64,000 bases of DNA from an uncultured Gammaproteobacteria bacterium (GTDB lineage Bacteria > Patescibacteriota > Patescibacteriia > Magasanikbacterales > UBA922). The stretch covers positions 11,532-75,531 of the forward strand of contig CAYFPJ010000004.1 of NCBI GenBank assembly GCA_964344965.1, given 5' to 3'. The notes under the pieces were generated by a model, which was given only the letters and a program-made list of their open reading frames with translations, did not search any database and was not told where the DNA came from. Positions 13,995 to 30,994 of this stretch are shown here, piece after piece. Made by a program: the position numbers and the translations under genes. The stretch's first letter is position 1, and each line of letters opens with the position of its first letter.

Positions 13995-14504
13995 ATGAAA
14001 AAATATTTTATCCTAATTCCTATATTATTTATTGCCATATTTCTAACGGGATGCACCAAAACAGAATATGAGTCAGACAGTCAAAATCCAACAAATGAAG
14101 AGGTTTCTGATAATTGGCAAAATTATAGTGACGAGCAGCATAATTTTGAATTTCAATATATAAAAAATGGCAATTCATCCATCTCATACGAAGGTAGACC
14201 AACCGGACTAATATTTTCTGTCCAAAAAGATGGAGTGGAAGCCTTATATGGAAAATTTGAAAAAGAAGAAAATAAAATTTCTTCAGAGTGTAAAGATGAC
14301 CAAGAAGATATCGGAGAAATTGAAATCGGAGGAATACCCACAAGAAAATGTAGTAATCATAAAAAATCTTCTTGGAGTGCAACTATTCAAAAAGAAAATA
14401 TAGATGAGACATTTGATACTTACACTATGACCTGTAGCAACGAAAGAGATAATTTTTATTCTTACTGCGATCAACTTCTTTCAACCTTCAAATTTGTAAA
14501 CTAA
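13995..14504 (+). CDS. hypothetical lipoprotein
   Basis: Signal peptide with lipobox LTGC. Confidence 0.6.
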   Translation: MKKYFILIPILFIAIFLTGCTKTEYESDSQNPTNEEVSDNWQNYSDEQHNFEFQYIKNGNSSISYEGRPTGLIFSVQKDGVEALYGKFEKEENKISSECKDDQEDIGEIEIGGIPTRKCSNHKKSSWSATIQKENIDETFDTYTMTCSNERDNFYSYCDQLLSTFKFVN

Positions 14505-14614
14505 ATCTCAAGCCAGCTAAAAAATCAACTTTCCTGTCCACTATCAAGAAGTTGATTTTTTGTTTATAAAGCTGTATCATAGTTTGAAGTGATAAAAAAT
14601 AACTTAATTAAATT

Positions 14615-16252
14615 ATGGAAAAAGAGCAACAACCAAAACAAGTAGGTAAGCCGTATCTCCTATTCAAAAAAGAACAGGCTCAACAAAAAAAAGAATTTGA
14701 TGTCATTGTTGTTGGCTCTGGTACTGGCGGACTGAGCGTCGCTTCTATACTGGCTCAAGAAGGAAAAAAAGTTTTGGTACTAGAGCAACACTACGTCATC
14801 GGAGGCTACACTCATGCTTTTGAACGCAAAGGTTATATCTGGGATATAGGATTGCACTATGTCGGCAATGTCCATATCAAAAATACCCTACTGAATAAAG
14901 TATTTCGTTACATTAGTAAAGAAAAACTAGAATGGGAACCACTTGACGACATCTATGACCGCGTAGTTTTTGGAGATACAGAATATGAATTTCCTAGAGG
15001 AAGAGCCAATTTTAAAGCAAAACTAAAAGAATATTTTCCTGATGAAAAAGATCGCAATTCTATTGACGCATATTTCGAACTGTTAGATCAAGTAAGTAAA
15101 ATAAGTGGAGGATTTTTTGCCGAAAAAGTATTACCAGAATTTCTCGCCAAAATACTTGGCCCCATGTTGCGCAAGAAGGTCCTAAAATTTTCAGACCAAT
15201 ACACGCTACCAGTCCTAAAATCAATCACAGACAACGAAAAACTAATTGGAGTGCTGACAGCACAGTATGGTGACTATGGTCTACATCCTAGTAAGAGCAG
15301 CTTCTACATGCATGCCACTCTCGCCAATCACTATATGGAAGGTGCCGGCTATCCTCTGGGCGGGGGACCAAGCTTTGCTAAGACAATAGTACCAATCATT
15401 GAAGAAGCTGGCGGTGAAGTCCTGATGCAAGCTTCTGTAAAACAAGTAATTGTAGAAAATAATACAGCAATCGGAGTAGAAATGGCTGATGGTGAAAAAA
15501 TATATGCTAGTACTGTAGTCAGTGGTGCCGGAGCAGTGAACACCTATGAGCACCTACTTCCAAAAGAAATAGCAGAAAAGCATGGTATAAAAGAACAACT
15601 GGAAAAACTTTCACCTTCACTAGCTCATATGGGGCTTTATGTAGGAATAAAAGAGCCAACCGAGAATTTAAACCTGCCAAAATGTAATTACTGGCTCTTC
15701 CCAGACGAGTACGATCATGAAAAAAACCAAGCAAATTACAAAGACATCAATTCTCCCCTACCTATTGCTTTTGCTTCATTCCCCTCTGCCAAGGATCCAA
15801 TGTCTGAAAAAAACCATCCAGGCAGAACCACTGCTGAAGTGATTATTCTATTGCCTGACACTTGGTTTGAGAAGTGGAAAGGTACAGCTTGGAAAAAGCG
15901 CGATGAAGAGTATGAGGCTCTAAAAGAAAAAGTTGCAGAACAAATGTTTGAACAATTGTACAGAATTGCACCACAGCTGAAAGGAAAAGTAGACTATTAT
16001 GAAGTGTCCTCTCCCCTATCAACTATTCATTTCTCAGGACACCGTCGTGGTGAGATATATGGCGCAGCACTAGATCCGGATCGCTTCAGACAAAAATTCT
16101 TGAAACCAATTACTCCAGTCAAAAATTTCTTCATGACCGGACAAGACGCTATGGTCGCTAGTATCTCTGGCGGAGTGATGGGAGGAGTACTAGCAGCAAC
16201 AGCAATATTGAAAAAGAATATCATATGGAAAATAACTCGAAAAATGAAATAA
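14615..16252 (+). CDS. FAD-dependent oxidoreductase, phytoene desaturase/CrtI-like family
   Basis: 545-aa ORF with an N-terminal FAD-binding motif DVIVVGSGTGGLSVA...LVLEQH...GG. Confidence 0.7.
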   Translation: MEKEQQPKQVGKPYLLFKKEQAQQKKEFDVIVVGSGTGGLSVASILAQEGKKVLVLEQHYVIGGYTHAFERKGYIWDIGLHYVGNVHIKNTLLNKVFRYISKEKLEWEPLDDIYDRVVFGDTEYEFPRGRANFKAKLKEYFPDEKDRNSIDAYFELLDQVSKISGGFFAEKVLPEFLAKILGPMLRKKVLKFSDQYTLPVLKSITDNEKLIGVLTAQYGDYGLHPSKSSFYMHATLANHYMEGAGYPLGGGPSFAKTIVPIIEEAGGEVLMQASVKQVIVENNTAIGVEMADGEKIYASTVVSGAGAVNTYEHLLPKEIAEKHGIKEQLEKLSPSLAHMGLYVGIKEPTENLNLPKCNYWLFPDEYDHEKNQANYKDINSPLPIAFASFPSAKDPMSEKNHPGRTTAEVIILLPDTWFEKWKGTAWKKRDEEYEALKEKVAEQMFEQLYRIAPQLKGKVDYYEVSSPLSTIHFSGHRRGEIYGAALDPDRFRQKFLKPITPVKNFFMTGQDAMVASISGGVMGGVLAATAILKKNIIWKITRKMK

Positions 16253-17505
16253 CAAATCATGATAAAGAAATGCGTATCGTGATTATTGGTGCTGGAGCGG
16301 CAGGACTGACAGCTGCCTCCGCACTTCGTGACAAAGGATATCAGAATATCACAATCCTCGAGCGCAGTGACCATGCTGGGGGGAAATGTTCTACGGTAGA
16401 CATAGATGGCAAAAATTATGAACTGGGAGCTGGCATGATAGCCAAGAGCAACACTACTGTTTTAAACTTTGTAAAAAAATATAAAATTCCACTAGCCCAA
16501 GTACCTTTTGGGGCAACAGTCATAACAAAAGAGGCACCAAGAGAAACGGAAAAAAAATTAACACTCCCCCATAGTCTAAAGATCATCCATCAGGCACTGT
16601 GGACTTATCGTAGATTACAAAAAAAGTATAAACTAAAAAAACCTGGTTTCTTCAATATCGACCACCAAGAGCTTTCCATGTCCTTTGCTAAGTTTGCCAA
16701 GAAATACAAAATTGAAGATCTGGCACGCAATTTTGAATTATCACATACTGGATTTGGGTATGGATACTTCGCAGATGTGCCAGCAGCCTATGTTCTAAAA
16801 TATTTCTCATTAGGAATCATGCTATCTTCTGTGACACGACGTATGTATGTTTTTCCAAACGGCATCCAACGACTGTGGACCAGGGTAGCAGAAGACTTTA
16901 GCATCATGTACGATACAAACATCACAAAAATAGTGAGAAAAAATTCTCAAATATCTATTGAAATAGAAGGAAAAAAAGACCCTCTAGTTTGTGATAAAAT
17001 TATTATTACTTCACCACTAGACGAACTTGCAGAATTCTTGGATGTGAATAATCAAGAAAAAAATTTATTCTCTCAAATCCAATATATTGATTATCGTGTC
17101 TTAGTGTGCGAACTGGAAGGATTCCCACGCAAAACTGGATATGCTTCTTACAATTTTTTCTCATCACGAGCAGGGTGTCCAGTATTTTGGTACCACAGAC
17201 ACAAAGATACAGACATCACTATATTCTATGCACTGGCTGACTTTGAAATGTCAGATGATCAAGTCACAAATAAAACCAGCGAATTCGTCACCAAAATGGG
17301 CGGCAAGGTAAAGAGGGTAGAAAGAGTAATTCGTTGGAAATACTTTCCACACGTTTCAGAAGAAAGAATCAGAGAAGGATACTATGATAAATTAGAAAGC
17401 TTACAAGGCCAAAACAATACTTATTATGCTGGAGAGCTGATGAACTTTAGTACTGTTGGTTTGACTTCACAGTATGCAGAATATCTAGTAAATAAATTTT
17501 TTTAA
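16225..17505 (+). CDS. FAD-dependent amine-oxidase-like oxidoreductase
   Basis: Rossmann motif RIVIIGAGAAGLTAA...ILERSDHAGGK; start may be the internal ATG at 16270. Confidence 0.65.
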   Translation: MENNSKNEITNHDKEMRIVIIGAGAAGLTAASALRDKGYQNITILERSDHAGGKCSTVDIDGKNYELGAGMIAKSNTTVLNFVKKYKIPLAQVPFGATVITKEAPRETEKKLTLPHSLKIIHQALWTYRRLQKKYKLKKPGFFNIDHQELSMSFAKFAKKYKIEDLARNFELSHTGFGYGYFADVPAAYVLKYFSLGIMLSSVTRRMYVFPNGIQRLWTRVAEDFSIMYDTNITKIVRKNSQISIEIEGKKDPLVCDKIIITSPLDELAEFLDVNNQEKNLFSQIQYIDYRVLVCELEGFPRKTGYASYNFFSSRAGCPVFWYHRHKDTDITIFYALADFEMSDDQVTNKTSEFVTKMGGKVKRVERVIRWKYFPHVSEERIREGYYDKLESLQGQNNTYYAGELMNFSTVGLTSQYAEYLVNKFF

Positions 17506-17508
17506 TAC

Positions 17509-17811
17509 TTGCACTATGGAACAAAAAAAGACTTCACAAAAGAATTCTCTATCCAAAAGAAAAAACTTCGTCCCTGGGCAATATTATTGCTTGCAATTGC
17601 CATTTCTGTCGTTTTAGTACTGCCAATTTTATCTATTACTGTTGGTATTGACAAAGCACTACTCTCTCACTATTTGGTCTTATCTGCAATTCTCTCAATA
17701 ATTTCTGCAATCAAAGTAATAAAATTTTCCAAATGTCCAAACTGTAAAAAATACATGGGCAGAGACATAGGAAAATTTTGTCCGAACTGTTCAGTACAGA
17801 CACAAGAATAA
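17509..17811 (+). CDS. hypothetical small membrane protein with a C-terminal zinc-ribbon (CPNC...CPNC)
   Basis: 100-aa ORF with TM helices and two CxxC pairs. Confidence 0.5.
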   Translation: MHYGTKKDFTKEFSIQKKKLRPWAILLLAIAISVVLVLPILSITVGIDKALLSHYLVLSAILSIISAIKVIKFSKCPNCKKYMGRDIGKFCPNCSVQTQE

Positions 17812-17820
17812 TTATTTAAA

Positions 17821-18318
17821 ATGTTTATGCCTCGTCATTACTCTCAAACTTTTGGTGTCGTAGGAGCCATATTGGAAAAAGATGGTAAGATTGCTTTGGT
17901 AAAAGAATCAGGAACAAAAAAACACCCAGATAATGGCAAGTGGAATCACCCAGCTGGCTGGCTTGACGTAGGAGAAGATCCTATTGTTGGGGCCAAGAGA
18001 GAGGCGGAAGAAGAAACTGGCTACAAATTTACACCCACATCTCTTTTGGGGATCTACTCACTAGTGCGTAACGATGTTGAAAAAGACTGCGGTGGTACTC
18101 CACATCCAATAAAAATGATCTTTGTCGGAGAAATAGATACAAACAACCAGTCGCCTCTTTCAGAAGACGTGTCAGAAGTAAGATGGTTTACACCACAAGA
18201 AATATACGACATGGATCAAAGCACACTAAGAGACGCTGACATAAAGACAATGGTGAAGAATTATTTTGAAGGAAAGAAATATCCACTGGAGGTCCTCTCT
18301 CATTATGTTCAAGAGTGA
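17821..18318 (+). CDS. NUDIX hydrolase
   Basis: Nudix box [23 protein letters not shown]. Confidence 0.8.
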
Positions 18319-18334
18319 TCATAAGTCATTTTTT

Positions 18335-18706
18335 ATGCCTAATCAATACAACTATCTCACTCCCGAGGAGCAAGAAGTAATTATAAACAAAGGAACTGAA
18401 AAACCCTTCAGTGGTGAGTTTGTAAATCATCATGAAGTAGGCACATACGTTTGTCGACAATGCAACTCCCCTCTTTATAGATCTGAAGACAAATTTGATT
18501 CTCACTGCGGCTGGCCCAGCTTTGATGATGAAATACCTGGGGCAGTAAATCACCTCCAAGATGCTGACGGAAGAAGAACAGAAATAATCTGCAATAATTG
18601 CAGCGGCCATCTTGGACATGTCTTTGAAGGAGAAAAAATGACTGCCAAAAATACTAGACACTGCGTCAACTCTATCTCTCTCAAATTTATTCCTCAAAAA
18701 AATTAG
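18335..18706 (+). CDS. msrB: peptide-methionine (R)-S-oxide reductase MsrB
   Basis: GTYVCRQC...HCGWPSF...[12 protein letters not shown] (SelR motifs); start taken at the internal ATG 18335. Confidence 0.85.
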
Positions 18707-18758
18707 TATCCATTAGTATTATTGGCATAAATTCGCATATTAGCATTATTATTCGCAT

Positions 18759-19241
18759 ATGGAAAAAGCATATTTTGCCGGCGGCTGCTTCTGGGGCGTA
18801 GAATACTTCTTTGCCAAGCAACCAGGAGTAATGGAAACCACTGTCGGCTACATCGGTGGTCACAAAGAAAATCCAACTTACAAAGAAGTCTGCAATAAAA
18901 CCACTGGTCATATCGAAGCCATGGAGGTGGTGTTTGATGAAGACAAGACAAGTTTTGAAGATTTGGCAAAGCTATTTTTTGAAATTCATGATCCGACTCA
19001 AGTGAATGGCCAAGGGCCAGACATTGGTGAGCAGTACAAGTCTGCTATTTTTTATACTGATGATGAACAAAAAAGTAAATCAGAAGAACTAATTGCTATT
19101 TTGAAAGAAAAAGGGTACGATGTGGTTACAAAGCTGATCAAGGCCGAAAAATTCTGGCCAGCCGAGGACTATCACCAAGATTACTATGATAAGAAAGACT
19201 CTACGCCGTATTGTCATAGTTATGTTAAAAAATTTGATTGA
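18759..19241 (+). CDS. msrA: peptide-methionine (S)-S-oxide reductase MsrA
   Basis: AYFAGGCFWGVE active-site motif. Confidence 0.85.
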   Translation: MEKAYFAGGCFWGVEYFFAKQPGVMETTVGYIGGHKENPTYKEVCNKTTGHIEAMEVVFDEDKTSFEDLAKLFFEIHDPTQVNGQGPDIGEQYKSAIFYTDDEQKSKSEELIAILKEKGYDVVTKLIKAEKFWPAEDYHQDYYDKKDSTPYCHSYVKKFD

Positions 19242-19247
19242 TAAAAT

Positions 19248-19958
19248 ATGGATAGAACAGAACCAGGAGGACCAAATCCAGAACAACTAGCTAAAGAAGA
19301 GCGTGAAAAGCATCTCAGAGAAACTACAGAAATACTGAAAGAAAAAGATAATAGGAATCACAAACTGTCTATTGAAGGATGGAGGCTTTTGGCAGAGCAC
19401 GAAGATTATGAAACTTATAGAAATATGGGTTATAACATTTTATATCAATTAGAGGTTGGGCTAGTCAGTAGACTATTCGGTGGCCCTGAAAATCTGAGAG
19501 GGAAAACTATCATACTTCTTGGTGGGGCAAAAAACTTTAGAATAAAGGATAAAAATAGTAGAGCAAAAAATTTATCACCAGCAGAAATACTCGCATTGCA
19601 TGGAGCGAAAGTGATTGTTGTTGATTTATATATCGACAAAAAAGATTTTTTACCAATACCAGGCATTACTGTCTTAGAAGGTAATCTAAAAGACCTAAGC
19701 CTAGAGAAAAAAGCAGACTTGCTAGTAACCCAATCTGTTTTCACAAACAGAATGGCACCTGATTTTTTCAATGAAACATTAGAGGCTTCGAAAGATCTGG
19801 CATTGCTTCAAGCTCATATTTGTGCCCAATTTGAATCCCCTTACCCTAAATTAAAGGAAGAAGAATTGCCTGGAAAAGTACTATTTTGTGACACAAAAAA
19901 AGAAGGTGAGGGTTTTAATGGTCGCACACATTTTCTCATTATAGACAATCAAGAATAA
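19248..19958 (+). CDS. hypothetical protein
   Basis: 236-aa ORF with no recognised motif. Confidence 0.5.
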   Translation: MDRTEPGGPNPEQLAKEEREKHLRETTEILKEKDNRNHKLSIEGWRLLAEHEDYETYRNMGYNILYQLEVGLVSRLFGGPENLRGKTIILLGGAKNFRIKDKNSRAKNLSPAEILALHGAKVIVVDLYIDKKDFLPIPGITVLEGNLKDLSLEKKADLLVTQSVFTNRMAPDFFNETLEASKDLALLQAHICAQFESPYPKLKEEELPGKVLFCDTKKEGEGFNGRTHFLIIDNQE

Positions 19959-20035
19959 GATATATAAAAACTTGACAACAAACTTGACAACAATCCCACA
20001 TTGATCTAAAATACAAAAACTTACAACCAAACCAC

Positions 20036-20252
20036 ATATATTACGGAAGTGAGGTGAGATTCCTCCACTGTGCCGCAACGGTAATTGGTCTTCCTAGTCT
20101 TCACGGATAAGCACCTTGTAAAAAGGGACTTGTCCGGCGAAGCTTTAGCGAAGCCGGAGTCCGGTCTGTGTATATGTGCAATTCCCGAGCAGGAAAACAA
20201 GTAAATTGTCTTTACTTTTTGCCATCTTCCTGACTCTCTGGAAGATTTTTTT
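20036..20252 (+). promoter_or_regulatory. candidate cobalamin (B12) riboswitch with an intrinsic-terminator expression platform
   Basis: GGUGAGAUUCC, GCAACGGUAA and a B12-box-like AGCCGGAGUCCGGUC element resemble the RF00174 core; hairpin TCTTCC-N8-GGAAGA followed by T7 at 20225-20252; lies upstream of DUF4430 genes. Confidence 0.55.
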
Positions 20253-20261
20253 ATACTAAAA

Positions 20262-20368
20262 ACGTCATTGCGAGGAGTCTGAAAGAACGACGTGGCAATC
20301 TCAGTGTCTGTAAGTAAAAACGCGAGATTACCACGTCGTGTGGCTTCGCCCACCCCTCGCAATGACGA
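20262..20368. mobile_element. MITE-like element M1 with 15-bp terminal inverted repeats CGTCATTGCGAGGAG / CCTCGCAATGACG
   Basis: Homologous copies at 43314, 44727 and 47153; inserted between the riboswitch terminator and the first gene of the cluster. Confidence 0.8.
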
Positions 20369-20398
20369 AAATATTTACCAAAATCAGTCAATAAATTT

Positions 20399-21040
20399 AT
20401 GCAAAACACAAATTCAAAAATCCTTATCTTTGCGCTATTACTCCTACTTGCTGGAGCTGCTTGCAACCAAATAACAATACCAGAATCTCCATATGAATCT
20501 GATAAATCAGAAAAGATTGAAATAACAATAGATTCAGATTTGGAGATAGAACAAGTACCAAAAGTAGAAGAAGAGCTCCCGCCTGATGACACTCCCCCAC
20601 CAACTATAGTAGAAAAAAAAGTAGAAGAAAAACTGGAAATAGAAGATGGGTCCACGGCGCCAATAGATGTAGTCCCGCAGAAGCAGTCAAGGAATTATGA
20701 AAGTAAATACAAGAATAACACAGATAAAGAAAAAAGAGATGTGCTGATAACCTCATTTCTAGTACAAGACGAAGAGTATAATATAGAAATTCCCGAAGGT
20801 AGTACAGGCTACGATCTAATGCAGAGTGCTAGTACCCAATCAAATTTCACTTTCTCTGCCAAAAATTTTCCTGGTCTTGGTTATTTCATTGAAGAAATCA
20901 ATGGTCAAAAAAATGATCATATGAAAGGAATCTACTGGATTTATTATATCAACGGCGAAAAAGCAAAAGTAGGTATATCGAATTATTTATTAACTAATGG
21001 AGACATAATTGAATGGAAGTATGAAAATGAAAAATTTTAA
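20399..21040 (+). CDS. DUF4430 domain lipoprotein (transcobalamin beta-domain-like)
   Basis: Signal peptide with lipobox (LLLAGAAC); C-terminal DUF4430-like region YWIYYINGEKAKVGISNYLLTNGDIIEWKYE. Confidence 0.6.
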   Translation: MQNTNSKILIFALLLLLAGAACNQITIPESPYESDKSEKIEITIDSDLEIEQVPKVEEELPPDDTPPPTIVEKKVEEKLEIEDGSTAPIDVVPQKQSRNYESKYKNNTDKEKRDVLITSFLVQDEEYNIEIPEGSTGYDLMQSASTQSNFTFSAKNFPGLGYFIEEINGQKNDHMKGIYWIYYINGEKAKVGISNYLLTNGDIIEWKYENEKF

Positions 21041-24017
21041 ACCACTCCTGACAGGAATATTTATAATTGCAATACTAATCGCTCAACCCACTAGTGCAGA
21101 AGAGGTCAATATAGAGATGACTGCAAATAGTGAAGAAATTGTGGTGGAATCAATTGCAATAATATCTGAAGAAGAGATCATCCCAGATGATATTTTCATT
21201 ACAAATGAAAATATCACTGAAATGCAGAATGATGTTTCTGAAAATGAAACTAAATTTATCTTCGAAGAAACAATAGATGGTAATAATTTCGAAATAATTG
21301 CTGATGTCAGTAGTGGGAATAAAACAACTACATTCAGTATAGAAAACCTTTCAGATGCAGTTGCGATAGATTCTGTAGAACTCGAAGAAAAAAATGCTGA
21401 AGAAGATAACACAGGTACAGATATTCAAGATGAAAAAAATATAGAATCAAACATAGAAACCACCACCATCCACCTCCAACTAGAAACTATCGACGGTACC
21501 ATATTTGATAAAGAAGATTATGTGGTGGAAAGTTGTGAGTATGCTGATCAGTATGTCCTTACTGCTTGGTGCGCAATCCAGCAAGTAGCTGAAGAAGAAG
21601 GTTTGGGGCTGGATTATACAGATTATGGTGGTGATCTTGGTATATTTTTGGTATCAATCACATCAGATTTTGGTACACACAATTATCCAAGTTTCTTTGT
21701 AAATAATGAATGGGGACCCGGTCTTAGCAACTATCATTTACAAGAATATGATCATATTTTACTTGTCGGAGAGACATACCCCCTAAAACTAGATGTATCC
21801 ACGACTACGCCAGAAATAGGTACTACTACGACCATATCTGTCTATGAGGCAGGTTATGATGAGAATTGGAATGCTGGTTGGTTTTTGTCTGTGAGCAGTA
21901 CAATACTTGTCAATGGAGAAACCGTAGACAGTGACAGTGGAGTTTATCCGCTTGATGTTACCACTACTAGTGAATATCTGGTCCATGCTGTGAAAGATGG
22001 ATTTGTGGGGACTGGGGAGTTGACTATTAGTCCTTATAAAATAGAGGAAGCAGCTGCAGAGGTCATAAACTACCCCACCACCACCATCCACCTCCAACTA
22101 GAAACTATCGACGGTACCATATTTGATAAAGAAGATTATGTGGTGGAAAGTTGTGAGTATGCTGATCAGTATGTCCTTACTGCTTGGTGCGCAATCCAGC
22201 AAGTAGCTGAAGAAGAAGGTTTGGGGCTGGATTATACAGATTATGGTGGTGATCTTGGTATATTTTTGGTATCAATCACATCAGATTTTGGTACACACAA
22301 TTATCCAAGTTTCTTTGTAAATAATGAATGGGGACCCGGTCTTAGCAACTATCATTTACAAGAATATGATCATATTTTACTTGTCGGAGAGACATACCCC
22401 CTAAAACTAGATGTATCCACGACTACGCCAGAAATAGGTACTACTACGACCATATCTGTCTATGAGGCAGGTTATGATGAGAATTGGAATGCTGGTTGGT
22501 TTTTGTCTGTGAGCAGTACAATACTTGTCAATGGAGAAACCGTAGACAGTGACAGTGGAGTTTATCCGCTTGATGTTACCACTACTAGTGAATATCTGGT
22601 CCATGCTGTGAAAGATGGATTTGTGGGGACTGGGGAGTTGACTCTATCACCAATAACAACGACAGGAGATCAGACAGAAGAAGAAATAGAAGATGATCCT
22701 CCTGGCAATGGCGGGAGCGGAGGAGGCACTTCAAAACCAAATACAGAAACATCTCTAGAAATAATGATTAACAAAGCTTTTGAATACTTGTATAATGAAC
22801 AGCTGGAAGATGGCAGCTTTGAGATAACTCCATTTACAGACTGGGTGGCGATTGCCTTTGGTAAGTATGATTTTTCTGATGATCTCTTTACAACAGCAAA
22901 AAATAATTTAAAAACATTTCTGCAAGATGTATCTGAAAATGAATTAACACTTTTAACTGATTATGAACGGCACATCCTTGCCCGATCAGCACTTGATCTT
23001 GACGGGTATATTTACCAACAAAATATTTTAGATAAATTTGATGGTCAGCAATTTGGTAGTCCCGCTTTGATCAATGATGATATATTTGCTATTATTTCTT
23101 TGTGTGAAATTGGATACTGCATAAATGAGATAGAAACTGCGGCTGAAAATATCCGGAATGATTTTGTAGCTGATAATTTTTATGGTATTGATCTGACTGC
23201 TGCGGCCATTCGAGCTTTATTATTTATATATCCAAGCACAGATGAAGCTATTGCAAATGCCAAAGTACATCTCCAGAAAAACCAAGAATTAGATGGTGGA
23301 TTCAATAGTGAGGACGGAAGAGTAGATTCCACTAGCTGGGTAATGGATGCCATTGGTAAGATTGGCGATACTAGCTTTGACGGATGGACAAATAATGGTA
23401 AAACACCTTTGGATTACCTATCTGAAGTTCAAAATGACGATGGTAGTTTTGGAGAAACCAACAAAGTATGGTCTACAGCCTATGGTCTCATAGCTCTATC
23501 GCATGACTGGTCACTAGAGCCTGGCACAGAAAATAATCTTGTCAACGAAGATGAAACTACCAAAGAAAATAATTCTACAAATCAAAGTAGTGGATCAAAT
23601 ATTGTCATAAATACTACCACTACTACAGAAATAATGATTGACGAGAATCCTACTTCTACTCTTGATTTTATTATTGAGACCCCAAACAGCACTCCATCTT
23701 CAACTACCAAAGCAGAACAATCGGAAGAAAGCAATGATGAAGAAAAAAAAGGTAATGAAAATGTGAATAATAAGTCTACCAAAGACACAGTTTCTGTCGA
23801 AATAGTTCCTGAAGTGACACCAGTGAGGGCAATACTAGGTAAAAAAATTAATGACCAAGGTAATAGTATCGAAAAAGAAATAATAACTGATGAAAAAAAT
23901 GAAAAACAAAAAATAGTGCCAGTAAAAAATGAAAATAAATCATTCATAAATATAATCATGAACTTCATTTACAACATATTTTCTTCTGGTTTAAAATTTT
24001 TAAGTAATCTGATATAA
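21009..24017 (+). CDS. large secreted/anchored surface protein: signal peptide, acidic region, 2x (DUF4430-like + Ig-like) modules, Gly-rich linker, alpha/alpha-toroid (prenyltransferase/terpene-cyclase-like) domain, Thr/Ser-rich stalk, C-terminal TM anchor
   Basis: 1002-aa ORF; internal near-identical 206-aa tandem duplication; LEDGSFEITPFTDWVAIAFG... repeats resemble prenyltransferase alpha-alpha repeats. Confidence 0.7.
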   Translation: MNGSMKMKNFKPLLTGIFIIAILIAQPTSAEEVNIEMTANSEEIVVESIAIISEEEIIPDDIFITNENITEMQNDVSENETKFIFEETIDGNNFEIIADVSSGNKTTTFSIENLSDAVAIDSVELEEKNAEEDNTGTDIQDEKNIESNIETTTIHLQLETIDGTIFDKEDYVVESCEYADQYVLTAWCAIQQVAEEEGLGLDYTDYGGDLGIFLVSITSDFGTHNYPSFFVNNEWGPGLSNYHLQEYDHILLVGETYPLKLDVSTTTPEIGTTTTISVYEAGYDENWNAGWFLSVSSTILVNGETVDSDSGVYPLDVTTTSEYLVHAVKDGFVGTGELTISPYKIEEAAAEVINYPTTTIHLQLETIDGTIFDKEDYVVESCEYADQYVLTAWCAIQQVAEEEGLGLDYTDYGGDLGIFLVSITSDFGTHNYPSFFVNNEWGPGLSNYHLQEYDHILLVGETYPLKLDVSTTTPEIGTTTTISVYEAGYDENWNAGWFLSVSSTILVNGETVDSDSGVYPLDVTTTSEYLVHAVKDGFVGTGELTLSPITTTGDQTEEEIEDDPPGNGGSGGGTSKPNTETSLEIMINKAFEYLYNEQLEDGSFEITPFTDWVAIAFGKYDFSDDLFTTAKNNLKTFLQDVSENELTLLTDYERHILARSALDLDGYIYQQNILDKFDGQQFGSPALINDDIFAIISLCEIGYCINEIETAAENIRNDFVADNFYGIDLTAAAIRALLFIYPSTDEAIANAKVHLQKNQELDGGFNSEDGRVDSTSWVMDAIGKIGDTSFDGWTNNGKTPLDYLSEVQNDDGSFGETNKVWSTAYGLIALSHDWSLEPGTENNLVNEDETTKENNSTNQSSGSNIVINTTTTTEIMIDENPTSTLDFIIETPNSTPSSTTKAEQSEESNDEEKKGNENVNNKSTKDTVSVEIVPEVTPVRAILGKKINDQGNSIEKEIITDEKNEKQKIVPVKNENKSFINIIMNFIYNIFSSGLKFLSNLI
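21459..22650 (+). repeat. near-perfect tandem duplication (2 x 618 bp) inside the 21009-24017 CDS
   Basis: Copy 1 begins at 21459 and copy 2 at 22077; about 574 bp identical at nucleotide level before divergence at 22033 / 22651. Confidence 0.9.
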
Positions 24018-24415
24018 TGAATTACACTCCAAAAAAAGTCAATATGTATACAAAATTAGGTAAAATTGGAATGGTAATTACCACTGTACTAATCATTGGT
24101 GTTGGATGCAATAGTGTCAAAAAAATCACCTATATTTATAACGTAGAAATCTTCAAGTCAGACATGTATTCTGATACTCATAAGATAGAAATGGAAAAAG
24201 ATAACACAAATCTAGCAGTTCTAACAAAAAAAATTGATCCAGAAGCACAAACACAGTCTATAAACGGACAAGAAACAGTGACAAAGCTAGAAGGAGTAAT
24301 CTCTACTCTCAGCAAAGAATGGAAAATATATATAAATAGTACTAGTCCAGAATTCATTAATCTTGCCGACGTGACGGTCCAAGCTTCAGACCAGATTGAA
24401 TGGCGCTACGAATAA
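24017..24415 (+). CDS. small DUF4430-like protein
   Basis: 132-aa ORF with N-terminal TM/signal; C-terminal ...QASDQIEWRYE pattern like the DUF4430 proteins upstream. Confidence 0.5.
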   Translation: MNYTPKKVNMYTKLGKIGMVITTVLIIGVGCNSVKKITYIYNVEIFKSDMYSDTHKIEMEKDNTNLAVLTKKIDPEAQTQSINGQETVTKLEGVISTLSKEWKIYINSTSPEFINLADVTVQASDQIEWRYE

Positions 24416-24423
24416 AAAATATT

Positions 24424-24960
24424 ATGAAAGATAAAAATAAAGTGTTGATAGTCCTTTTATTAATTCTAATTGGAGCCTCAGCCAGATTATTCCCACACCC
24501 TGCCAACTTCGCTCCAATCGGAGCGATAGCAATATTCGGAGCACTGTACCTGCCGCGAAAAATTGCTCTTGTTGCTCCCCTACTAGCTATGTTTGCTAGT
24601 GACATCTTCATTGGATTTTATAGTTGGCAGATGATGGTGGCAGTGTATTTTGGGTTTGTAATCATGGGGATGATTGGTCTTCAAGTCAGGAAAAATAAAA
24701 AATTTAGTACTATTCTCGGCGGGACCTTACTAGGATCTTTCCTATTTTTCTTATTAACCAATGCTGCTGTTTGGGCTTTTGGGACCATGTATACTCTTGA
24801 TCTATCTGGACTAATGCAGAGTTATTACATGGCTATTCCGTTCTTTAGGAACAGCCTTGCCGGTGATTTATTTTATACTGCTGTACTAGTAGGTGCTTTT
24901 GAAGGATTGCAATATTATTATAGGATTCAGAATACAAAAAAAGAAATCTTGAATTCTTAA
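24424..24960 (+). CDS. polytopic membrane protein, putative ECF-transporter S-component-like (5-6 TM)
   Basis: ~178 aa, hydrophobic throughout; genomic association with DUF4430 genes and the riboswitch. Confidence 0.45.
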   Translation: MKDKNKVLIVLLLILIGASARLFPHPANFAPIGAIAIFGALYLPRKIALVAPLLAMFASDIFIGFYSWQMMVAVYFGFVIMGMIGLQVRKNKKFSTILGGTLLGSFLFFLLTNAAVWAFGTMYTLDLSGLMQSYYMAIPFFRNSLAGDLFYTAVLVGAFEGLQYYYRIQNTKKEILNS

Positions 24961-24980
24961 ATCATACAAATAATATTATA

Positions 24981-25011
24981 AAAAACTCTCTTAAATTAAG
25001 AGAGTTTTTTT
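24981..25011. terminator. bidirectional intrinsic terminator
   Basis: Hairpin ACTCTCTTAA-A-TTAAGAGAGT flanked by an A-run and a T-run. Confidence 0.7.
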
Positions 25012-25033
25012 GTCAGCAATTGTTGAAATATTC

Positions 25034-25228
25034 TTATTTTTCTTCTGGAGAAGAACCTTCTGGCAGATCACCTTCTTCAGGAGTTGCAGGAGGAAAAACA
25101 TCTGCATTAGGATCACTTCTTTCTCTTTGTGCTTCAGCCCCTATGCAATCACAACCTTCTTTCAAGGGCTTGCCACAAGTTGTACAACACTTTACCTCAC
25201 CCTCCTTACCACTTCCATATGACACCAT
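25034..25228 (-). CDS. hypothetical small Cys-rich protein (KCCTTCGKPLKEGCDC)
   Basis: 64-aa ORF at the 3' end of a minus-strand operon; overlapped by plus-strand ORFs, so uncertain. Confidence 0.3.
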   Translation of the reverse strand: MVSYGSGKEGEVKCCTTCGKPLKEGCDCIGAEAQRERSDPNADVFPPATPEEGDLPEGSSPEEK

Positions 25229-25316
25229 ATATTTTTTATTAATTATAATACTATTTTTAACATTGATCTAAGACTTAAAATTCTATGAACTATGAACCAA
25301 GAACTGTGCACTCAGA

Positions 25317-26747
25317 TCACCCAAAGATCTGATCCCCATCATCATAGGTAATATCACCAGAATCAGTCATGTATTTTGGGGCAGTTTTTTCAAATTCTGC
25401 CACCTTATCTTCTGGTGCAGACAATAGTTCAATAGGTAGACCAACAGGCGGCTCGGAAGTCTTGAGACTGGCTGTCTGAATCTGTGGAGTAGCAACATGA
25501 GACATTGGAAAATGCCAAATTGTAGCCAATTCTTCAATATTCAAGACATAGCGCTTCTTACCTATCCAAGGATTACGTTTTTTATAGGCTTTCATCATTA
25601 TATTTTTTCTAAAGTTATCCCTTCTTTCTTTCATGAAATATTCTGTCGATGTAATATATTTTGGCAAAAGAGCATTGGAGTAGGGATTGTTGAACTGATT
25701 CACTGCCCCCACCAAAGAATTTATTCCTCTAGATGGATTGTATACTTCTTTTTTGGCAACATAGACTGTCCTAATCTTGGTCTTAAATCCGAGCTTGCTG
25801 ATCTTATTTTCCATAGCTTCAAGCAACTTCTTCTTCCCAGGTGTTAAGTACAAAATTTGATTGGGAGGTCCATCATCCTTAGAAGAAGAAGTGGATCCAC
25901 CCTCTGTACGAATTCCTCCAGCCAACTGGGCACTGACCTCTTCAAAACTTCTGGCAAACTCATTTGTGAGAGGGTTATCAAAGACCCAACCAAGCATGCC
26001 TGGCTTACTCTTTTCTTTTTCACCAATAAGTTCTTTGATCTTCTTTATGCATCCCTTTTTCCAACGAAATTCCTGTAGAGGCTCGATAATAATTTGATAC
26101 CACATCTGCTCTCCTGGTCCAATCCTACTGAAACTCTCCAAAAAAGTACCCATAGGATCTTTCAAGACAGTATCTTTTGAGATGTTGTGTTCAAACTCTT
26201 GGTACATACGAATTGGATAGGCCTCATGCTGTGTCAAGACAAAATCAGCTGCCCACATCTTGTGAGTGTCACTTGGATACTTGTCTGGAATTCCTTCTGT
26301 ATAATCCTCTACCTCAGTAATTTCTGCTTCTGGATATTGAGCATAGACAGCTGCTTCGATCACATCCTGGTATTTATCAAGTGTGCGAATCAAAAACTGG
26401 ATATAACCCTCAATACTCACAATCTCAAAACTAAATTGGTTTTGATAAAATCCATGCCAATACTTCGTACCAATACTTGGTACCTCCATCACACTGAATA
26501 TGTGAGTAAATAGCTGCTCCACAGCTTTGGGGGTCTGTACATTCATCGGAGGAATATCTATAGCCAAAAGCACGTGTTTAAAATCTTTTTTTAAAATTTT
26601 CCTCTTGTAGGAATAGAGCTCATAAAAACCGGCGTACAACAAAAGATACACCAACACAGACCAACCTCCTGCTGCTATAAATCTATAAATTATTTCAAAA
26701 GTTGACTCGCTTGTTATGTAGTCAATGATGATATCCATAGCTGACAA
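25317..26747 (-). CDS. hypothetical N-terminally membrane-anchored protein
   Basis: 476-aa ORF with 2 N-terminal TM helices and a large soluble domain. Confidence 0.6.
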   Translation of the reverse strand: MSAMDIIIDYITSESTFEIIYRFIAAGGWSVLVYLLLYAGFYELYSYKRKILKKDFKHVLLAIDIPPMNVQTPKAVEQLFTHIFSVMEVPSIGTKYWHGFYQNQFSFEIVSIEGYIQFLIRTLDKYQDVIEAAVYAQYPEAEITEVEDYTEGIPDKYPSDTHKMWAADFVLTQHEAYPIRMYQEFEHNISKDTVLKDPMGTFLESFSRIGPGEQMWYQIIIEPLQEFRWKKGCIKKIKELIGEKEKSKPGMLGWVFDNPLTNEFARSFEEVSAQLAGGIRTEGGSTSSSKDDGPPNQILYLTPGKKKLLEAMENKISKLGFKTKIRTVYVAKKEVYNPSRGINSLVGAVNQFNNPYSNALLPKYITSTEYFMKERRDNFRKNIMMKAYKKRNPWIGKKRYVLNIEELATIWHFPMSHVATPQIQTASLKTSEPPVGLPIELLSAPEDKVAEFEKTAPKYMTDSGDITYDDGDQIFG

Positions 26748-26749
26748 AA

Positions 26750-26911
26750 TTATACTTCAAGTATTTTGTAAACTCCCAAGTATACAACAATCACAAAAAA
26801 GCCGGACCACCACCAACCAAGCTGGCCAGACTTGTATCCAGCAAAGAATGCAAGCAGACAGACAAAAGCAGCAATGAAAGAGATAAAATGTCTAATAAAT
26901 TCTTCAGACAT
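26750..26911 (-). CDS. hypothetical 53-aa small membrane protein (not in the ORF track)
   Basis: ATG at 26911 and stop at 26750, 3 nt before the start of the 25317-26747 gene; one TM helix plus a WWW motif. Confidence 0.4.
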   Translation of the reverse strand: MSEEFIRHFISFIAAFVCLLAFFAGYKSGQLGWWWSGFFVIVVYLGVYKILEV

Positions 26912-27129
26912 AATAAATATTTAACTAATGAATATAGGACTGATATTAAGTTTTACCTATTTTTGACCAAAAGAGAGCCAAAATATTAACTTATTTTTTA
27001 GACACAATTGTGTAAGTCCAAAGACGAGTTTCGGGGCTAAAAAATAAGTTAGTATTTTGGTGGGTTTGAAAAACTTGATATGAGTTCATAGTTTTAGAAG
27101 TATATCACAAAATCTACCTGGTAACTATC

Positions 27130-27492
27130 TCAAGAAGCAGAAACAGATGATAATAATTCTTTTACAGAATTTATATCTGCTTTTATTTTTTTTATTAATT
27201 CTCTGTCAGATTCAAACTTCTCAATCGAAGCAACCTGCTGGACAGGATCTATCTCCAGATAGTCACCATAAAAATCAGGCCCTTTATAATCAATCAAGTA
27301 AATTTCAACCTTCCAAACAGGATCTTCTCTCACCACCATTGAGCAAGGATATTTCTTTTTTTTAAAATGACACCAAGCAGCATATACACCTGAGCCAAAC
27401 TTTACTTCTTTTTTTGTACAATCCAAATTGGCCGTAGGAAATCCATAGACCTTACCCATTTTGTCTCCACCTATCACTATTCCACCAAACAT
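27130..27492 (-). CDS. riboflavin kinase domain protein (second paralog)
   Basis: GKVYGFPTANL motif; paralog of 13603-13953. Confidence 0.7.
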   Translation of the reverse strand: MFGGIVIGGDKMGKVYGFPTANLDCTKKEVKFGSGVYAAWCHFKKKKYPCSMVVREDPVWKVEIYLIDYKGPDFYGDYLEIDPVQQVASIEKFESDRELIKKIKADINSVKELLSSVSAS

Positions 27493-27652
27493 AATATAAA
27501 TTTAAAACTTGTGAACCCCTTCCTGGGCCAGAGAGCCCGAGGGCGTCAGGGTCAAAAGAAATGGAACTGTGGCAGGGCCACAAAGTGTTTATTTCACTAT
27601 AGATATTTTATTCTAGTATCTGTGTAATCTATTTTAATCTGTGTAATCAATG

Positions 27653-28120
27653 TCATAAAAGAGCCATCTCCACTGCTGCCTTACCCCACTCATAGCCACT
27701 ATTTTTTGAGCCACTAGAACGCTCTATGGCCTGATCCTCTGTCAGACAAGTTAGAACTCCGTAAATTATAGGAATATCGTTGTATATACTTAATTTCATG
27801 ATAGCATTAGTGACTGTCTCAGCAATATACTCAAAATGCATAGTTTCACCCTTGATGAGAGACCCTAGACAAACAACTACATCAAGATTATTTTCTTTGA
27901 TTATTCTGCTAGTGGCAAATGGTATTTCAAAAGCTCCGGGAACATTGCGTATTATGATATTTTTCTCCAAAACTTCTGATTCTAGCAGAGCCAATTTACA
28001 CCTCTCAAGCAAGGCGTCTGTAATATGACTATTCCAACGACTTGTCACAATACCTACTTTCAATTTTGCACCACTCATCTTACCAAATTCTATACCCTTG
28101 CCCATACAAATAGCGATCAA
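27653..28120 (-). CDS. ribH: 6,7-dimethyl-8-ribityllumazine synthase
   Basis: KVGIVTSRWNSHITDALL...VPGAFEIP...VVCLGSLIKGETMHFEY; true start may be the ATG at 28078. Confidence 0.85.
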   Translation of the reverse strand: MIAICMGKGIEFGKMSGAKLKVGIVTSRWNSHITDALLERCKLALLESEVLEKNIIIRNVPGAFEIPFATSRIIKENNLDVVVCLGSLIKGETMHFEYIAETVTNAIMKLSIYNDIPIIYGVLTCLTEDQAIERSSGSKNSGYEWGKAAVEMALL

Positions 28121-29383
28121 CTAATTAAGTAAAATTTCGACTGCTTTTTCAAGTCCTTTATCAATATAATCAACACTTTCTAGATCCTCCTCCCCTTCTG
28201 GTGACACAAACATTTCTTCTACAATTATATCCGGCACAATCCCCTCTCCATCTATCATCCTGTCATCTGGAGTCAACCATTTGGCAATAGTAAGTTTTAT
28301 GGCAGACCCATCTGGGAGTACTTCAAAATCCTGAACAGAGCCTTTCCCAAAGGTCTGAACTCCTACAATGGTAGCCAATCCGTGATCTTGAAGAGCTCCA
28401 GCCACTATCTCTGACCCTGAGGCTGTGCCTCCGTCAACAAGTACTACAGTAGGGATATCTGCTAATCTATGTTTACCTCTTGTCTTGTGCTCGTTACTTT
28501 TTATATTGGCAAATTGCTCTTTCACTATCACTCCACTGGTGACCCATTCACTAGCTATATCAATAGAAGTCTCCAAAAAACCACCAGGATTGAGACGAAG
28601 ATCAAGCACAATACCTTCTGGAGGAGACAAAGCCATCCCTCGGACTACTTTATCAAATTCAGGCCAGGTTGTTTCATTGAAATAACTTACCCTGATATAG
28701 GCAATATTATCTTCTCTCATTTCAAACAAAACAGTTGGCACGTTTATAGTATCACGAATAATTTCTATGTCTTCGGCAGTATCAAATCCATTGTGAGTGA
28801 CAGTAAGTGTCACCACCGTACCACCCCCCCCTCGAATTTTGGACACAGCATCTTCGAGAGACATACCAAATGTCTCTTCTCCATCAATAGCATATATCTT
28901 ATCTCCTGCCACCAAACCTGCTTTCTCGGCTGGAGATTCTGGCAAAGGCGCCACAATGATTAGTTGCTCATTACGAATACCAATCTCCGCTCCAATTCCT
29001 TCAAATTCTCCAGAAAGCCCCTCGGTAAATTCTTTGGCTTTTACAGGAGGAAAATATGTAGAATAGGGGTCGTCTATACCCTCCACGAGTCCAGAGATTG
29101 CCCCATAAAAAAGATCTACATCGCTAATTGACTGATGATCGACATGCTTTTTCTTGATCTTGTCCCATATTTCCCAAAATTGCTCAAAACTAACTTCTGG
29201 AGACCTTGTCTCAGAATAGAGATCAATAACTTTGCCCAATTCAACCTCACCATTGCTATCAAAAATTTCACTTTTAAGTGCATACCCTTGGCCAATATAA
29301 AAACCAAAAGCAAAAAATAAAGCTAGTCCAATTAGTATTTTCCAAGTATTTATTTTGGATGAATTTTTTGTTGATTCTTCCAT
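28121..29383 (-). CDS. ctpA: C-terminal processing peptidase (S41 family, CtpA/Prc-like) with a PDZ domain
   Basis: PDZ region GLVAGDKIYAIDGEE; S41 motifs VVLVDGGTASGSEIVAGALQD and GKGSVQ. Confidence 0.85.
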   Translation of the reverse strand: MEESTKNSSKINTWKILIGLALFFAFGFYIGQGYALKSEIFDSNGEVELGKVIDLYSETRSPEVSFEQFWEIWDKIKKKHVDHQSISDVDLFYGAISGLVEGIDDPYSTYFPPVKAKEFTEGLSGEFEGIGAEIGIRNEQLIIVAPLPESPAEKAGLVAGDKIYAIDGEETFGMSLEDAVSKIRGGGGTVVTLTVTHNGFDTAEDIEIIRDTINVPTVLFEMREDNIAYIRVSYFNETTWPEFDKVVRGMALSPPEGIVLDLRLNPGGFLETSIDIASEWVTSGVIVKEQFANIKSNEHKTRGKHRLADIPTVVLVDGGTASGSEIVAGALQDHGLATIVGVQTFGKGSVQDFEVLPDGSAIKLTIAKWLTPDDRMIDGEGIVPDIIVEEMFVSPEGEEDLESVDYIDKGLEKAVEILLN

Positions 29384-29508
29384 AAACTAAAGCAAATTAG
29401 GCAGAGTACGCAGAATAGGCCAAATAAGCAAAAGATGTAGTGGCATTAATTTCGTATCCTTAATCTGCATACTCTGCTTATTCTGCTTTGACTATCCAAG
29501 TTTAATAA

Positions 29509-29652
29509 ATAAAAGTAAATTTGGTTTAAGTAAGACTTCATCGTGCCATCCCCGCAGCAAGCTGCGGGGTATTGGCATAAAATTCTATTTCAACCAATGT
29601 GAGTCTTCACTTTTTCGATGCAAGCATCGAGGAATAAAACCACTTAAAGATT
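29509..29652 (+). repeat. ~145-bp interspersed repeat, copy B (most divergent, ~8 substitutions)
   Basis: Sequence identity to copies A, C, D and E. Confidence 0.9.
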
Positions 29653-29686
29653 TAATGATATCTAACATCTCTGACAAATCTAAAAA

Positions 29687-30994
29687 TCATTGGTCTTCCA
29701 AGCGTTCAATTTCCACACCTATACCACGTAAATTCTTGATCAAGTCAGCATAACCTCTCTCGAGAGGATAAACATTTCTTAGTACTGATTTACCACTGGC
29801 AGCGATCATGGCAATCAATATTGCCATACCAGGACGAATGGCAGGAGGGCAGATCAAATCATTTCCTTTTAGGCTTGTGGGCCCCTCCACCATCACTCTG
29901 TGCGTATCCAACATCAGTACATTCCCACCCAATTTGCCAAGTTCTAGGATGTACTGAGCTCTATTTTCATACACCCAATCATGGACAAGTGTCTTACCTT
30001 TTACTTGGGTAAGTACTGGAGCAAAAAGAGGTAGATTATCGATATTCAAACCAGGAAAGGGGCGGCCGTAAAGTTTGTCTGACAGGGCAAGTAAATTCGA
30101 AGGCTTAATCACTAAATCCACGATATTGAAATGACCATTTTTTGACTTACGCTTTCCTGTAATCTTATATTTCTGACCCATTACTTTTAATTTTTCAAGT
30201 TCTAATTCGAGAAAGTCTAGTGGGCAATTTTTGATAGTCAAATTCGACTTGGTGGTAATAGCCAAAGAAATCCAAGTCATGGCGACAATCGGGTCTGGCA
30301 TAATATGGTAAGCAGTCACTGATTTTAACTTTTTGACTCCTGTAATGACCAGAGTGGTGGTGCCAACACCTTCTATCTTGGCTCCAGCAGTATTCAAAAA
30401 ATGACAAAGATCTTGGACCATGTAGTTTGAAGAAGCAAACTTAATAGTAGTCTTACCGGGAGCCAAAACAGCTGCCATTATGGCATTTTCAGTTGGTGTA
30501 TCCCCAGATTCATACATCACTATATCGGCTGATCGAATTGGCTTATTTTTGACATCGTAGTACTTTGCCTTAGAGGTCACAGAAATCCCAAATTTCTCCA
30601 GAGCAAAAAGATGAGGTTTGATAGTGCGAGCCCCAAGCTTGCAACCTCCAGATTTGTAAATTTTGTATGATTTTTCTCTAGATGCTAGAGCGCCGATTAG
30701 GAGTAGAGATGCTCTAGTTTTTTCACAAGCATACTTGTGAATATTTTCCATTTTCAATTTTTTACTACTATCAATTACCAGGGTGGTCTTACCAATTCTT
30801 TCTACTGTCACCCCAACGCTGTCTAATATTTCCAAAAACCTATCCACTTCTACAATATTAGGGACATCTTTCAAAGTGACCCTACCTCGCACCATGAGGG
30901 AAGCACAAAGGATGGCGACAGTGGAATTTTTTGCAGTACTTGTCTTGATTTCCCCCTTTAGGGACTTACCACCTTTTATAATAAATTTGGCCAT
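29687..30994 (-). CDS. murA: UDP-N-acetylglucosamine 1-carboxyvinyltransferase
   Basis: 435-aa ORF of the EPSP-synthase family with a MurA-like N-terminus and the K..ST.KN motif. Confidence 0.85.
   Translation of the reverse strand: MAKFIIKGGKSLKGEIKTSTAKNSTVAILCASLMVRGRVTLKDVPNIVEVDRFLEILDSVGVTVERIGKTTLVIDSSKKLKMENIHKYACEKTRASLLLIGALASREKSYKIYKSGGCKLGARTIKPHLFALEKFGISVTSKAKYYDVKNKPIRSADIVMYESGDTPTENAIMAAVLAPGKTTIKFASSNYMVQDLCHFLNTAGAKIEGVGTTTLVITGVKKLKSVTAYHIMPDPIVAMTWISLAITTKSNLTIKNCPLDFLELELEKLKVMGQKYKITGKRKSKNGHFNIVDLVIKPSNLLALSDKLYGRPFPGLNIDNLPLFAPVLTQVKGKTLVHDWVYENRAQYILELGKLGGNVLMLDTHRVMVEGPTSLKGNDLICPPAIRPGMAILIAMIAASGKSVLRNVYPLERGYADLIKNLRGIGVEIERLEDQ

Follow-up and report, generated by a model that had tools for sequence, protein, structure and literature searches.

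Bacterial surface proteins of variable length, the Periscope Proteins exemplified by SasG, Rib and Sgo_0707, are encoded by genes with highly identical DNA repeats, and because these repeats, which encode domains, are so alike in DNA, the genes can recombine internally and the proteins vary in length (PMC8201768). The transcobalamin family, comprising transcobalamin, intrinsic factor and haptocorrin, combines an alpha domain of the PF01122 type with a DUF4430-type beta domain, DUF4430 being the C-terminal domain of these proteins (PMC4350170). Here we describe a gene that can be compared with both, found in a 64,000-nucleotide stretch of DNA from an uncultured, ultra-small Patescibacteria bacterium (GenBank assembly GCA_964344965.1, contig CAYFPJ010000004.1, positions 11,532 to 75,531 of the forward strand), which was analyzed over its full length and is called the window below. 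The gene specifies a surface protein with two modules whose coding sequences are identical over 567 bp and are separated by a unique 51-bp linker; in public assemblies of the same strain, the gene is found with a single module. On balance, we consider it probable that an ancestral module-linker-module gene was homogenized by intragenic gene conversion, that the perfect repeats now mediate deletion, and that both alleles are present in the sampled population.

The parallels with the Periscope Proteins are several. In both cases, a surface protein is built with DNA-identical repeats that encode folded domains (here 567 bp at 100% identity, with a mean predicted local distance difference test score (pLDDT) of 91.9 for the AlphaFold2 model of the unit plus linker), the copy number differs between otherwise identical genomes (here 998 versus 792 amino acids, known from assemblies only), and the same mechanism is proposed, namely intragenic recombination between high-identity repeats. 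Unlike the Periscope Proteins, however, the present protein has only two copies of its repeat, with a unique linker between them instead of a perfect tandem array, and its host is an uncultured Patescibacteria bacterium. Its module is moreover probably not a part of a rod-like stalk; it lies in the N-terminal part of the protein, distal to both the α/α-toroid domain described below and the anchor, and has a ligand-binding-type fold that makes it a putative ligand-binding domain, the low-complexity region on the anchor side being the likelier spacer.

Anatomy of the repeat

Base-by-base comparison of the window with itself at an offset of 618 reveals the true extent of the repeat: 567 consecutive positions match without a mismatch (21459–22025 against 22077–22643), and on either side of this tract the identity at the same offset drops to about 30%, which is the random level. 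Chance cannot account for a 567-base identity at this offset. Both copies are in frame within a single open reading frame (ORF; 21009/21021–24017) and comprise 189 codons each. The 51-bp linker between them, also in frame, occurs once within the 64-kb window even if up to three mismatches are admitted, and no counterpart of it is seen either before the first copy or after the second (identity again about 30%). The overall layout can hence be written as p-A-x-A-q, with A standing for the 567-bp module and x for the 51-bp linker, and is not that of one unit followed by another. The original prediction, which was made from these letters alone, had placed here a near-perfect 618-bp tandem duplication at 21459–22650. 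Its start and its period of 618 are right; its end lies at 22643, the copies are perfect and not merely near-perfect (567 of 567 positions), and the identity at offset 618 spans only 567 of the 618 bp, the linker being without a second copy. Tandem Repeats Finder does not report the repeat, its longest period being 500 and that of the repeat 618; a general repeat search does list the pair, its printed reference copy being limited to 300 nt.

The two edges of the tract differ in character. At the 3' edge lies the conserved xSP motif that marks the end of the domain, where ISP, spelled ATT AGT CCT, stands against LSP, spelled CTA TCA CCA. Such a mosaic would fit the edge signature of a gene conversion. 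The 5' edge, on the other hand, directly abuts non-homologous sequence.

Two alleles in public assemblies

The best database match of the window protein, P0001, has 792 amino acids, is 100% identical to it, and is shorter by exactly 206 residues, i.e., the 189 of one module and the 17 of the linker. It is encoded both on a 28.7-kb MEGAHIT contig from the run ERR2281801 (PRJEB17505) and on a Logan contig from ERR2281802. These public contigs agree with the window DNA at 100.000% on both sides, the sole difference being a 618-bp gap that takes out one module plus the linker. Specifically, the locus L001 matches window positions 11021–22025 and 22077–34017 at 100.000%, the linker is missing from both one-module loci, L001 and L002, and deleting A and x from p-A-x-A-q gives P0001/L001 exactly. 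The earlier suggestion of copy-number variation is thus borne out by 998- and 792-residue alleles in a 100.000% identical background (assemblies of ERR2281801 and ERR2281802), and its warning of assembly trouble was apt, since the two alleles stem from different assemblies. A protein search for linker fragments with a 137-residue junction peptide returned nothing, missing even the known P0001.

In a de Bruijn graph, a linker branch that is not pruned would break a contig at the borders of the module. The MEGAHIT contig (k127) covers window positions 8414–37692, or about 29 kb, and both its ends lie inside copies of a dispersed 148-nt repeat (8392–8539 and 37570–37717), with an overlap of about k-1 bases; its graph therefore broke at repeats of about k-1. 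The same contig runs unbranched through the single module, as does the Logan contig (k=31) obtained from the second run. From this unbroken passage through the 567-bp module, and going by the behaviour of the assembler, we infer that the linker branch was either absent or pruned as low-depth. The one-module allele is probably genuine and dominant in the ERR2281801 and ERR2281802 samples, and the window would represent either another sample or a variant threaded by a repeat-resolving assembler.

The 148-nt repeat is itself an intergenic element with five copies on the forward strand of the window, the two just named and those at 29508–29655, 40055–40202 and 43438–43585. These copies are 88–95% identical and sharply bounded, and are predicted to fold with -48.8 kcal/mol (z of about -6) into two GC-rich hairpins that are very stable on either strand. 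No Rfam family matches the element at E≤1, and it is absent from the loci of the 80 relatives considered below. It may be a miniature inverted-repeat transposable element (MITE), a repetitive extragenic palindromic (REP) element or a small-RNA-like repeat.

Module number and divergence in relatives

A scan of GTDB representatives, with one genome per species and the source genome not among them, recovered 214 relatives, of which 80 were kept. All of these are metagenome-assembled genomes (MAGs) of the Patescibacteria/Candidate Phyla Radiation (CPR) type, including Magasanikbacteria, Paceibacterota, Parcubacteria and others, and the best of them shows 34–37% identity. Of the relatives, 50 contain one or more full-length units, with a single module in 36 and two modules in 14; a library-wide profile search likewise gathers 749 family representatives with mostly one or two units. 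Within two-module relatives, the first and second units are usually 27–43% identical, versus up to 76–91% for modules at the same position in different species, such that first units group with first units and second with second. By this comparison, an architecture with two modules is an old one and widespread across the family. Two modules are also present in the closest relative, P0002 (40% identity), where they are joined by a linker, VSPQELVEETILT, that is similar to the one in the window; the window module groups with the second unit of P0002 (53% versus 41% identity; bootstrap 75, as computed with numpy). In the comparison with related genomes, which the original prediction had itself proposed as a check, the age of the two-module layout speaks against a fresh duplication. 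The claim of a very recent duplication is not supported for this reason, and also because a unique linker is not something that tandem duplication could produce.

Gene conversion demonstrably operates in the family. In the locus L032 of a Candidatus Magasanikbacteria genome (JACPSK010000006.1), a 277-bp tract has 95.3% nucleotide identity between positions 6098–6374 and 6725–7001; it is confined to the DUF4430-like half of the module, and the flanking module sequence is 33–51% identical. It represents a conversion tract that is independent of the one proposed for the window. In P0002, the immunoglobulin (Ig)-like halves of the two modules are 70–82% identical versus 45–60% for the other halves. 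A further homolog, P0007, which is truncated by the end of its contig at 819 amino acids, has an extra N-terminal Ig-like domain and at least four perfectly tandem DUF4430+Ig units of 202 residues with 98% amino-acid identity; that the protein ends inside the fourth unit suggests that the array was hit by an assembly break. With its tandem units, P0007 is closer than the window protein to the classical Periscope picture. High-identity module arrays and changes in module number are recurrent in the family, the window being the cleanest two-copy case.

The window pair shares with other instances of concerted evolution by intragenic conversion the clustering of its copies by genome and not by position; the abrupt passage from 100% identity to saturated divergence, seen over three codons at the 3' edge, may be a further shared trait, and the independent partial tract in L032 is of the same kind. 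It differs from them in that the tract takes in almost all of the module, 189 homologous codons out of about 192, so that it mimics a fresh duplication, and in that no differences between donor and recipient are left by which to map the event.

A proposed history and its alternatives

The history that we favour is as follows. An older module-linker-module arrangement would have preceded the identical pair, and intragenic gene conversion, a form of concerted evolution, would have copied one of its modules over the other. The linker would have stayed unique because the conversion tract halted at the non-homologous linker and flanks, leaving those 51 bp untouched. The 567-bp perfect direct repeats so created would lend themselves readily to homologous recombination or slippage, and recombination anywhere in the identical modules would remove one module together with the linker, i.e., exactly 618 bp, resulting in the 792-residue allele. 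While the step from two modules to one would be easy, the exact reversal from the short allele would be impossible because the linker is lost. As neither the short allele nor the remainder of the window contains the linker, the direction of change would have been from long to short. Unequal exchange between two-module copies, in turn, could give rise to three modules.

Several observations weigh against this history or against parts of the functional picture developed further below. The mosaic at the 3' edge spans just three codons; the deep nodes of the unit tree are weak (bootstrap 42–54); and the nearest relatives are just 31–40% identical. Both alleles are known from assemblies alone, and every public assembly found for the strain carries one module. 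An exact look-up of the two-module protein in a collection of 15 billion proteins gave no record, and an exact search of the Joint Genome Institute (JGI) metagenome contigs with the linker gave no match. The argument that a loop breaks a contig, as applied to MEGAHIT and Minia, draws on general knowledge of de Bruijn graphs and an internal control. As to the module and its regulation, the window unit does not match the Pfam family PF14478 (DUF4430) at E≤1, and the riboswitch-like element at 20028–20139 is sub-threshold, scoring 32.9 bits with RF01482 against a gathering score of 50 (E 2e-4), over the full length of the model.

Four alternatives have to be weighed with these points in mind. That the copies are perfectly identical, head-to-tail, in frame and at a period of 618, and that the same strain also has a one-module allele, is what one would expect if an ancestor with one module had undergone a simple and very recent tandem duplication of 618 bp, through unequal crossing-over or slippage. 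Such an event would nevertheless give identity over the whole period, and 51 of the 618 bp lack a counterpart; it is contradicted because the long allele holds a linker that the short allele lacks and that, being absent from the rest of the window as well, is not derivable from it. We regard this explanation as highly improbable. A re-duplication in several steps, in which a one-module lineage, left so by an ancestral loss, gained a second copy and, through a separate event, the linker, with no ancestral second module being overwritten, fares somewhat better and is merely unlikely. The linker event might have been template switching with filler DNA, or a duplication of module plus linker followed by the precise loss of one linker. 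One-module proteins are indeed the majority, tandem arrays that are complete with the linker do form, as P0007 demonstrates, and relatives of at most 40% identity do not fix the state of the immediate ancestor. Against this, re-duplication calls for at least two events versus one for conversion; the linker begins with the conserved domain-end motif of the family and resembles the inter-unit linker of P0002; and a two-module closest relative and the clear conversion tract in L032 both favour conversion.

The remaining alternatives place the discrepancy in the assemblies. The two-module structure of the window could be an assembly product into which the loop of a minority or foreign variant was threaded, the dominant genome having one module; the loop might have come, for example, from another strain, the first module of which has diverged from the window module in all but its last k bases. 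The linker, however, is novel, in frame and typical of the family, the kind of sequence that assembly errors do not invent, and real molecules must exist in which it connects the end of one module with the start of another. We consider such mis-threading quite unlikely, despite the fact that all public contigs of the strain are one-module, that the two-module protein is without a record, that exact 567-bp repeats are a classic context for the mis-resolution of loops, and that the window crosses five copies of the 148-nt repeat, so that it was made by a repeat-resolving method; even if it had happened, a two-module allele would exist somewhere in the population. Conversely, only the two-module allele might be real, and the 792-residue allele a collapse of the repeat in short-read assemblies, with no polymorphism at all. 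Repeats that exceed the read length are a common source of error in short-read assembly, and both one-module contigs are products of it. Yet the MEGAHIT contig that breaks at the 148-nt repeats at both ends passes through the module, and a second assembler (Logan, k=31), working on a second run, arrived at the same single module, which renders a collapse decidedly unlikely. Conversion followed by deletion remains the history that we prefer.

The host protein and its domains

The protein encoded by the gene (Table 1) consists of a predicted signal peptide, an acidic N-terminal region, the two modules, a Gly-rich linker and an α/α toroid, followed by a low-complexity region rich in Ser/Thr/Asn/Glu and a putative C-terminal hydrophobic anchor, an architecture that is common to six homologs at 31–40% identity. 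Its gene had been called giant, and with 998–1002 codons it is of ordinary size for a surface protein; the designation as a surface protein itself stands, as inspection shows a signal-peptide-like N-terminus and a C-terminal hydrophobic segment conserved in homologs.

Each module is composed of a transcobalamin-beta-like/DUF4430-type domain (residues ~1–105) and an Ig-like domain (residues ~106–189). The AlphaFold2 model of unit plus linker accordingly has two beta-rich domains, and its confidence drops over the linker, consistent with the latter being flexible. When the first 105 residues are modeled alone, the pLDDT is 95.1, and PDB matches 1–18 of this N-terminal half are all either beta domains of transcobalamin, haptocorrin and intrinsic factor or 3u7z, a DUF4430 protein from structural genomics (template-modeling (TM) scores 0.53–0.69). 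The C-terminal half of the unit is modeled as an Ig-like beta sandwich, and Foldseek searches with the whole two-domain unit retrieve generic tandem-Ig structures alone (TM ~0.29). Because six of nine homologous units match PF14478 (best E 4.2e-6), the window unit can be assigned to DUF4430 by transitive homology. These results, namely the transcobalamin beta fold of the N-terminal half, the PF14478 matches of the homologous units and the Ig-like C-terminal half, uphold the initial description of the unit as DUF4430-like plus Ig-like. The toroid that follows the modules is recognized through the family profile, which matches a squalene-hopene cyclase of the PDB at E 2.2e-6, and through a weak PF13243 match; homologs carry precomputed matches to PF13243, PF00432 and PF01122. 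The alpha domain of transcobalamin belongs to the same α/α-toroid fold class.

With transcobalamin, intrinsic factor and haptocorrin, the window protein hence shares the beta-domain fold in the N-terminal half of its module (TM 0.56–0.69) and the presence of an α/α toroid, and a homolog, P0004, has precomputed matches to both PF01122 and PF14478; moreover, the operon of its relatives is associated with cobalamin riboswitches. In contrast to these eukaryotic proteins, with which it has 8–15% sequence identity, the domain order is reversed, in that the toroid comes after the beta modules; the beta modules number from one to four or more and carry an Ig-like domain in addition; and the protein is bacterial and predicted to be membrane-anchored, with a putative corrinoid-binding function. 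Judged by ORF sizes alone, the region might have been a phage structural module that includes a tape-measure gene; this candidate was dropped, given that the translations are those of ordinary cellular genes and that of the host gene is a signal-peptide/DUF4430/toroid protein.

Table 1. Location of the modules, the host gene and its neighbors in the window.
Feature	Position	Strand	Remarks
Cobalamin (adenosylcobalamin, AdoCbl) riboswitch-like aptamer	20028..20139	+	RF01482, sub-threshold
Upstream operon gene, secreted DUF4430 protein of 213 amino acids	20399..21040	+	PF14478, E 2.3e-17
Host gene, 998 amino acids from ATG	21021..24017	+	mechanical ORF starts at TTG 21009; P0001 has the same ATG
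Putative Sec signal peptide, MKMKNFKPLLTGIFIIAILIAQPTSA	21021..21098	+	read from the translation by inspection
Module copy 1	21459..22025	+	189 codons, protein residues 147-335; identity at offset 618
Inter-module linker (x), 51 bp in frame, ISPYKIEEAAAEVINYP	22026..22076	+	single occurrence in the window
Module copy 2	22077..22643	+	protein residues 353-541; matches copy 1 at 100%
α/α-toroid domain (squalene-hopene-cyclase/prenyltransferase-like repeats)	22743..23525	+	family profile against PDB
Putative membrane anchor, hydrophobic C-terminal segment	23943..24014	+	translation and alignment of homologs (which end ...YLGWKFL...)
Small protein with weak DUF4430-like C-terminus	24017..24415	+	PF14478, E 0.01, below cut-off
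DUF6580 integral membrane protein, candidate transporter component	24400..24960	+	PF20221, E 3.7e-48

Gene-neighborhood and riboswitches

The gene-neighborhood is conserved. A DUF4430 homolog lies directly upstream of the large gene in 76 of 82 loci, a set that includes six from outside the scan of relatives, and a DUF6580 gene adjoins the large gene in at least 38 relatives; homologs of the small protein encoded immediately downstream of the large gene are present in eight loci. The best promoter-like site of the region in a promoter scan (19984–20012) is situated just ahead of the riboswitch-like aptamer. The latter becomes visible only under E-value thresholds: at gathering scores, Rfam finds no family in the whole 64-kb window, not even a tRNA. 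In relatives the signal is stronger, as 8 of the 22 that were tested have an RF01482 or RF01689 (AdoCbl/AdoCbl-II) riboswitch above the gathering score directly upstream of the first gene of the operon (L004, L005, L006, L008, L016, L024, L025 and L031). An NCBIfam search of the neighboring genes gave no matches, and sequence searches of the PDB with the DUF6580 and DUF4430 neighbors gave nothing useful.

This arrangement points to a B12-regulated operon of the DUF4430 gene, the gene for the large protein and the DUF6580 gene, conserved across Patescibacteria. A B12-related function is favoured by the fold matches, the toroid, the riboswitches and the conserved operon. Owing to the transcobalamin-type fold and the cobalamin riboswitches of the relatives' operons, a role in corrinoid capture and uptake is the most likely function, and the host protein is probably an extracellular corrinoid (B12) capture protein. 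A more far-reaching possibility, which we put forward only tentatively and with considerable doubt, is that of a Patescibacteria-wide, hitherto undescribed B12-scavenging system consisting of the riboswitch, the secreted DUF4430 protein, an "inverted transcobalamin" and the DUF6580 membrane protein. In the anchored protein of such a system, the toroid would be preceded by a variable number of beta-domain+Ig modules, from one to four or more, and changes in this number that are driven by recombination, such as that between two and one within the strain studied here, might tune the capacity or the reach of corrinoid capture. If this were true, the cell would be auxotrophic and host-dependent, and the variation within the population would concern a nutrient receptor and not an adhesin stalk. 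The literature searched contained no description of a riboswitch-linked "inverted transcobalamin" operon of Patescibacteria, nor any papers on PRJEB17505, on DUF6580, or on transcobalamin together with Patescibacteria.

Some further features were seen near the operon or its homologs. Downstream of it, in convergent orientation, 25317–26747 on the reverse strand codes for a DUF8128 protein of 476 amino acids, strong homologs of which (E 1e-85 to 1e-136) are found at the corresponding place in at least eight relatives. In L029, a group I intron (RF00028, 61 bits) lies at 7850–8099 on the reverse strand, just downstream of the homologous gene. Elsewhere in the window, two paralogous ORFs of 116 and 120 amino acids (13603–13953, forward strand, and 27130–27492, reverse strand) contain only a flavokinase domain (PF01687, from public gene calls), and one of them adjoins a lumazine synthase gene (27653–28120).

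Biological implications

Taken by itself, the window gene encodes a length-variable surface protein of an ordinary, if well-documented, sort, which is probably kept uniform by intragenic recombination. Length variation of surface proteins through high-identity domain repeats is of a known kind, and the riboswitch-linked operon, which appears undescribed, is the newer lead. For genome analysis, the case implies that the length of the gene in this assembly depends on both the allele and the assembler (998 versus 792 amino acids), and that the module count taken from this MAG should be treated as uncertain. For the study of protein evolution, it offers a clean example of how gene conversion may mimic a fresh duplication, the unduplicated linker being the tell-tale, and one in which the direction of the polymorphism, from long to short, can be read from the sequence alone.

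The unit that varies is a module of the transcobalamin beta type and probably not a passive stalk repeat; its operon is linked to cobalamin riboswitches and conserved across Patescibacteria. Members of this group are thought to depend on other organisms for cofactors. If the module does bind corrinoids, the two alleles would provide a natural comparison of a one-module and a two-module form of a B12 capture protein.

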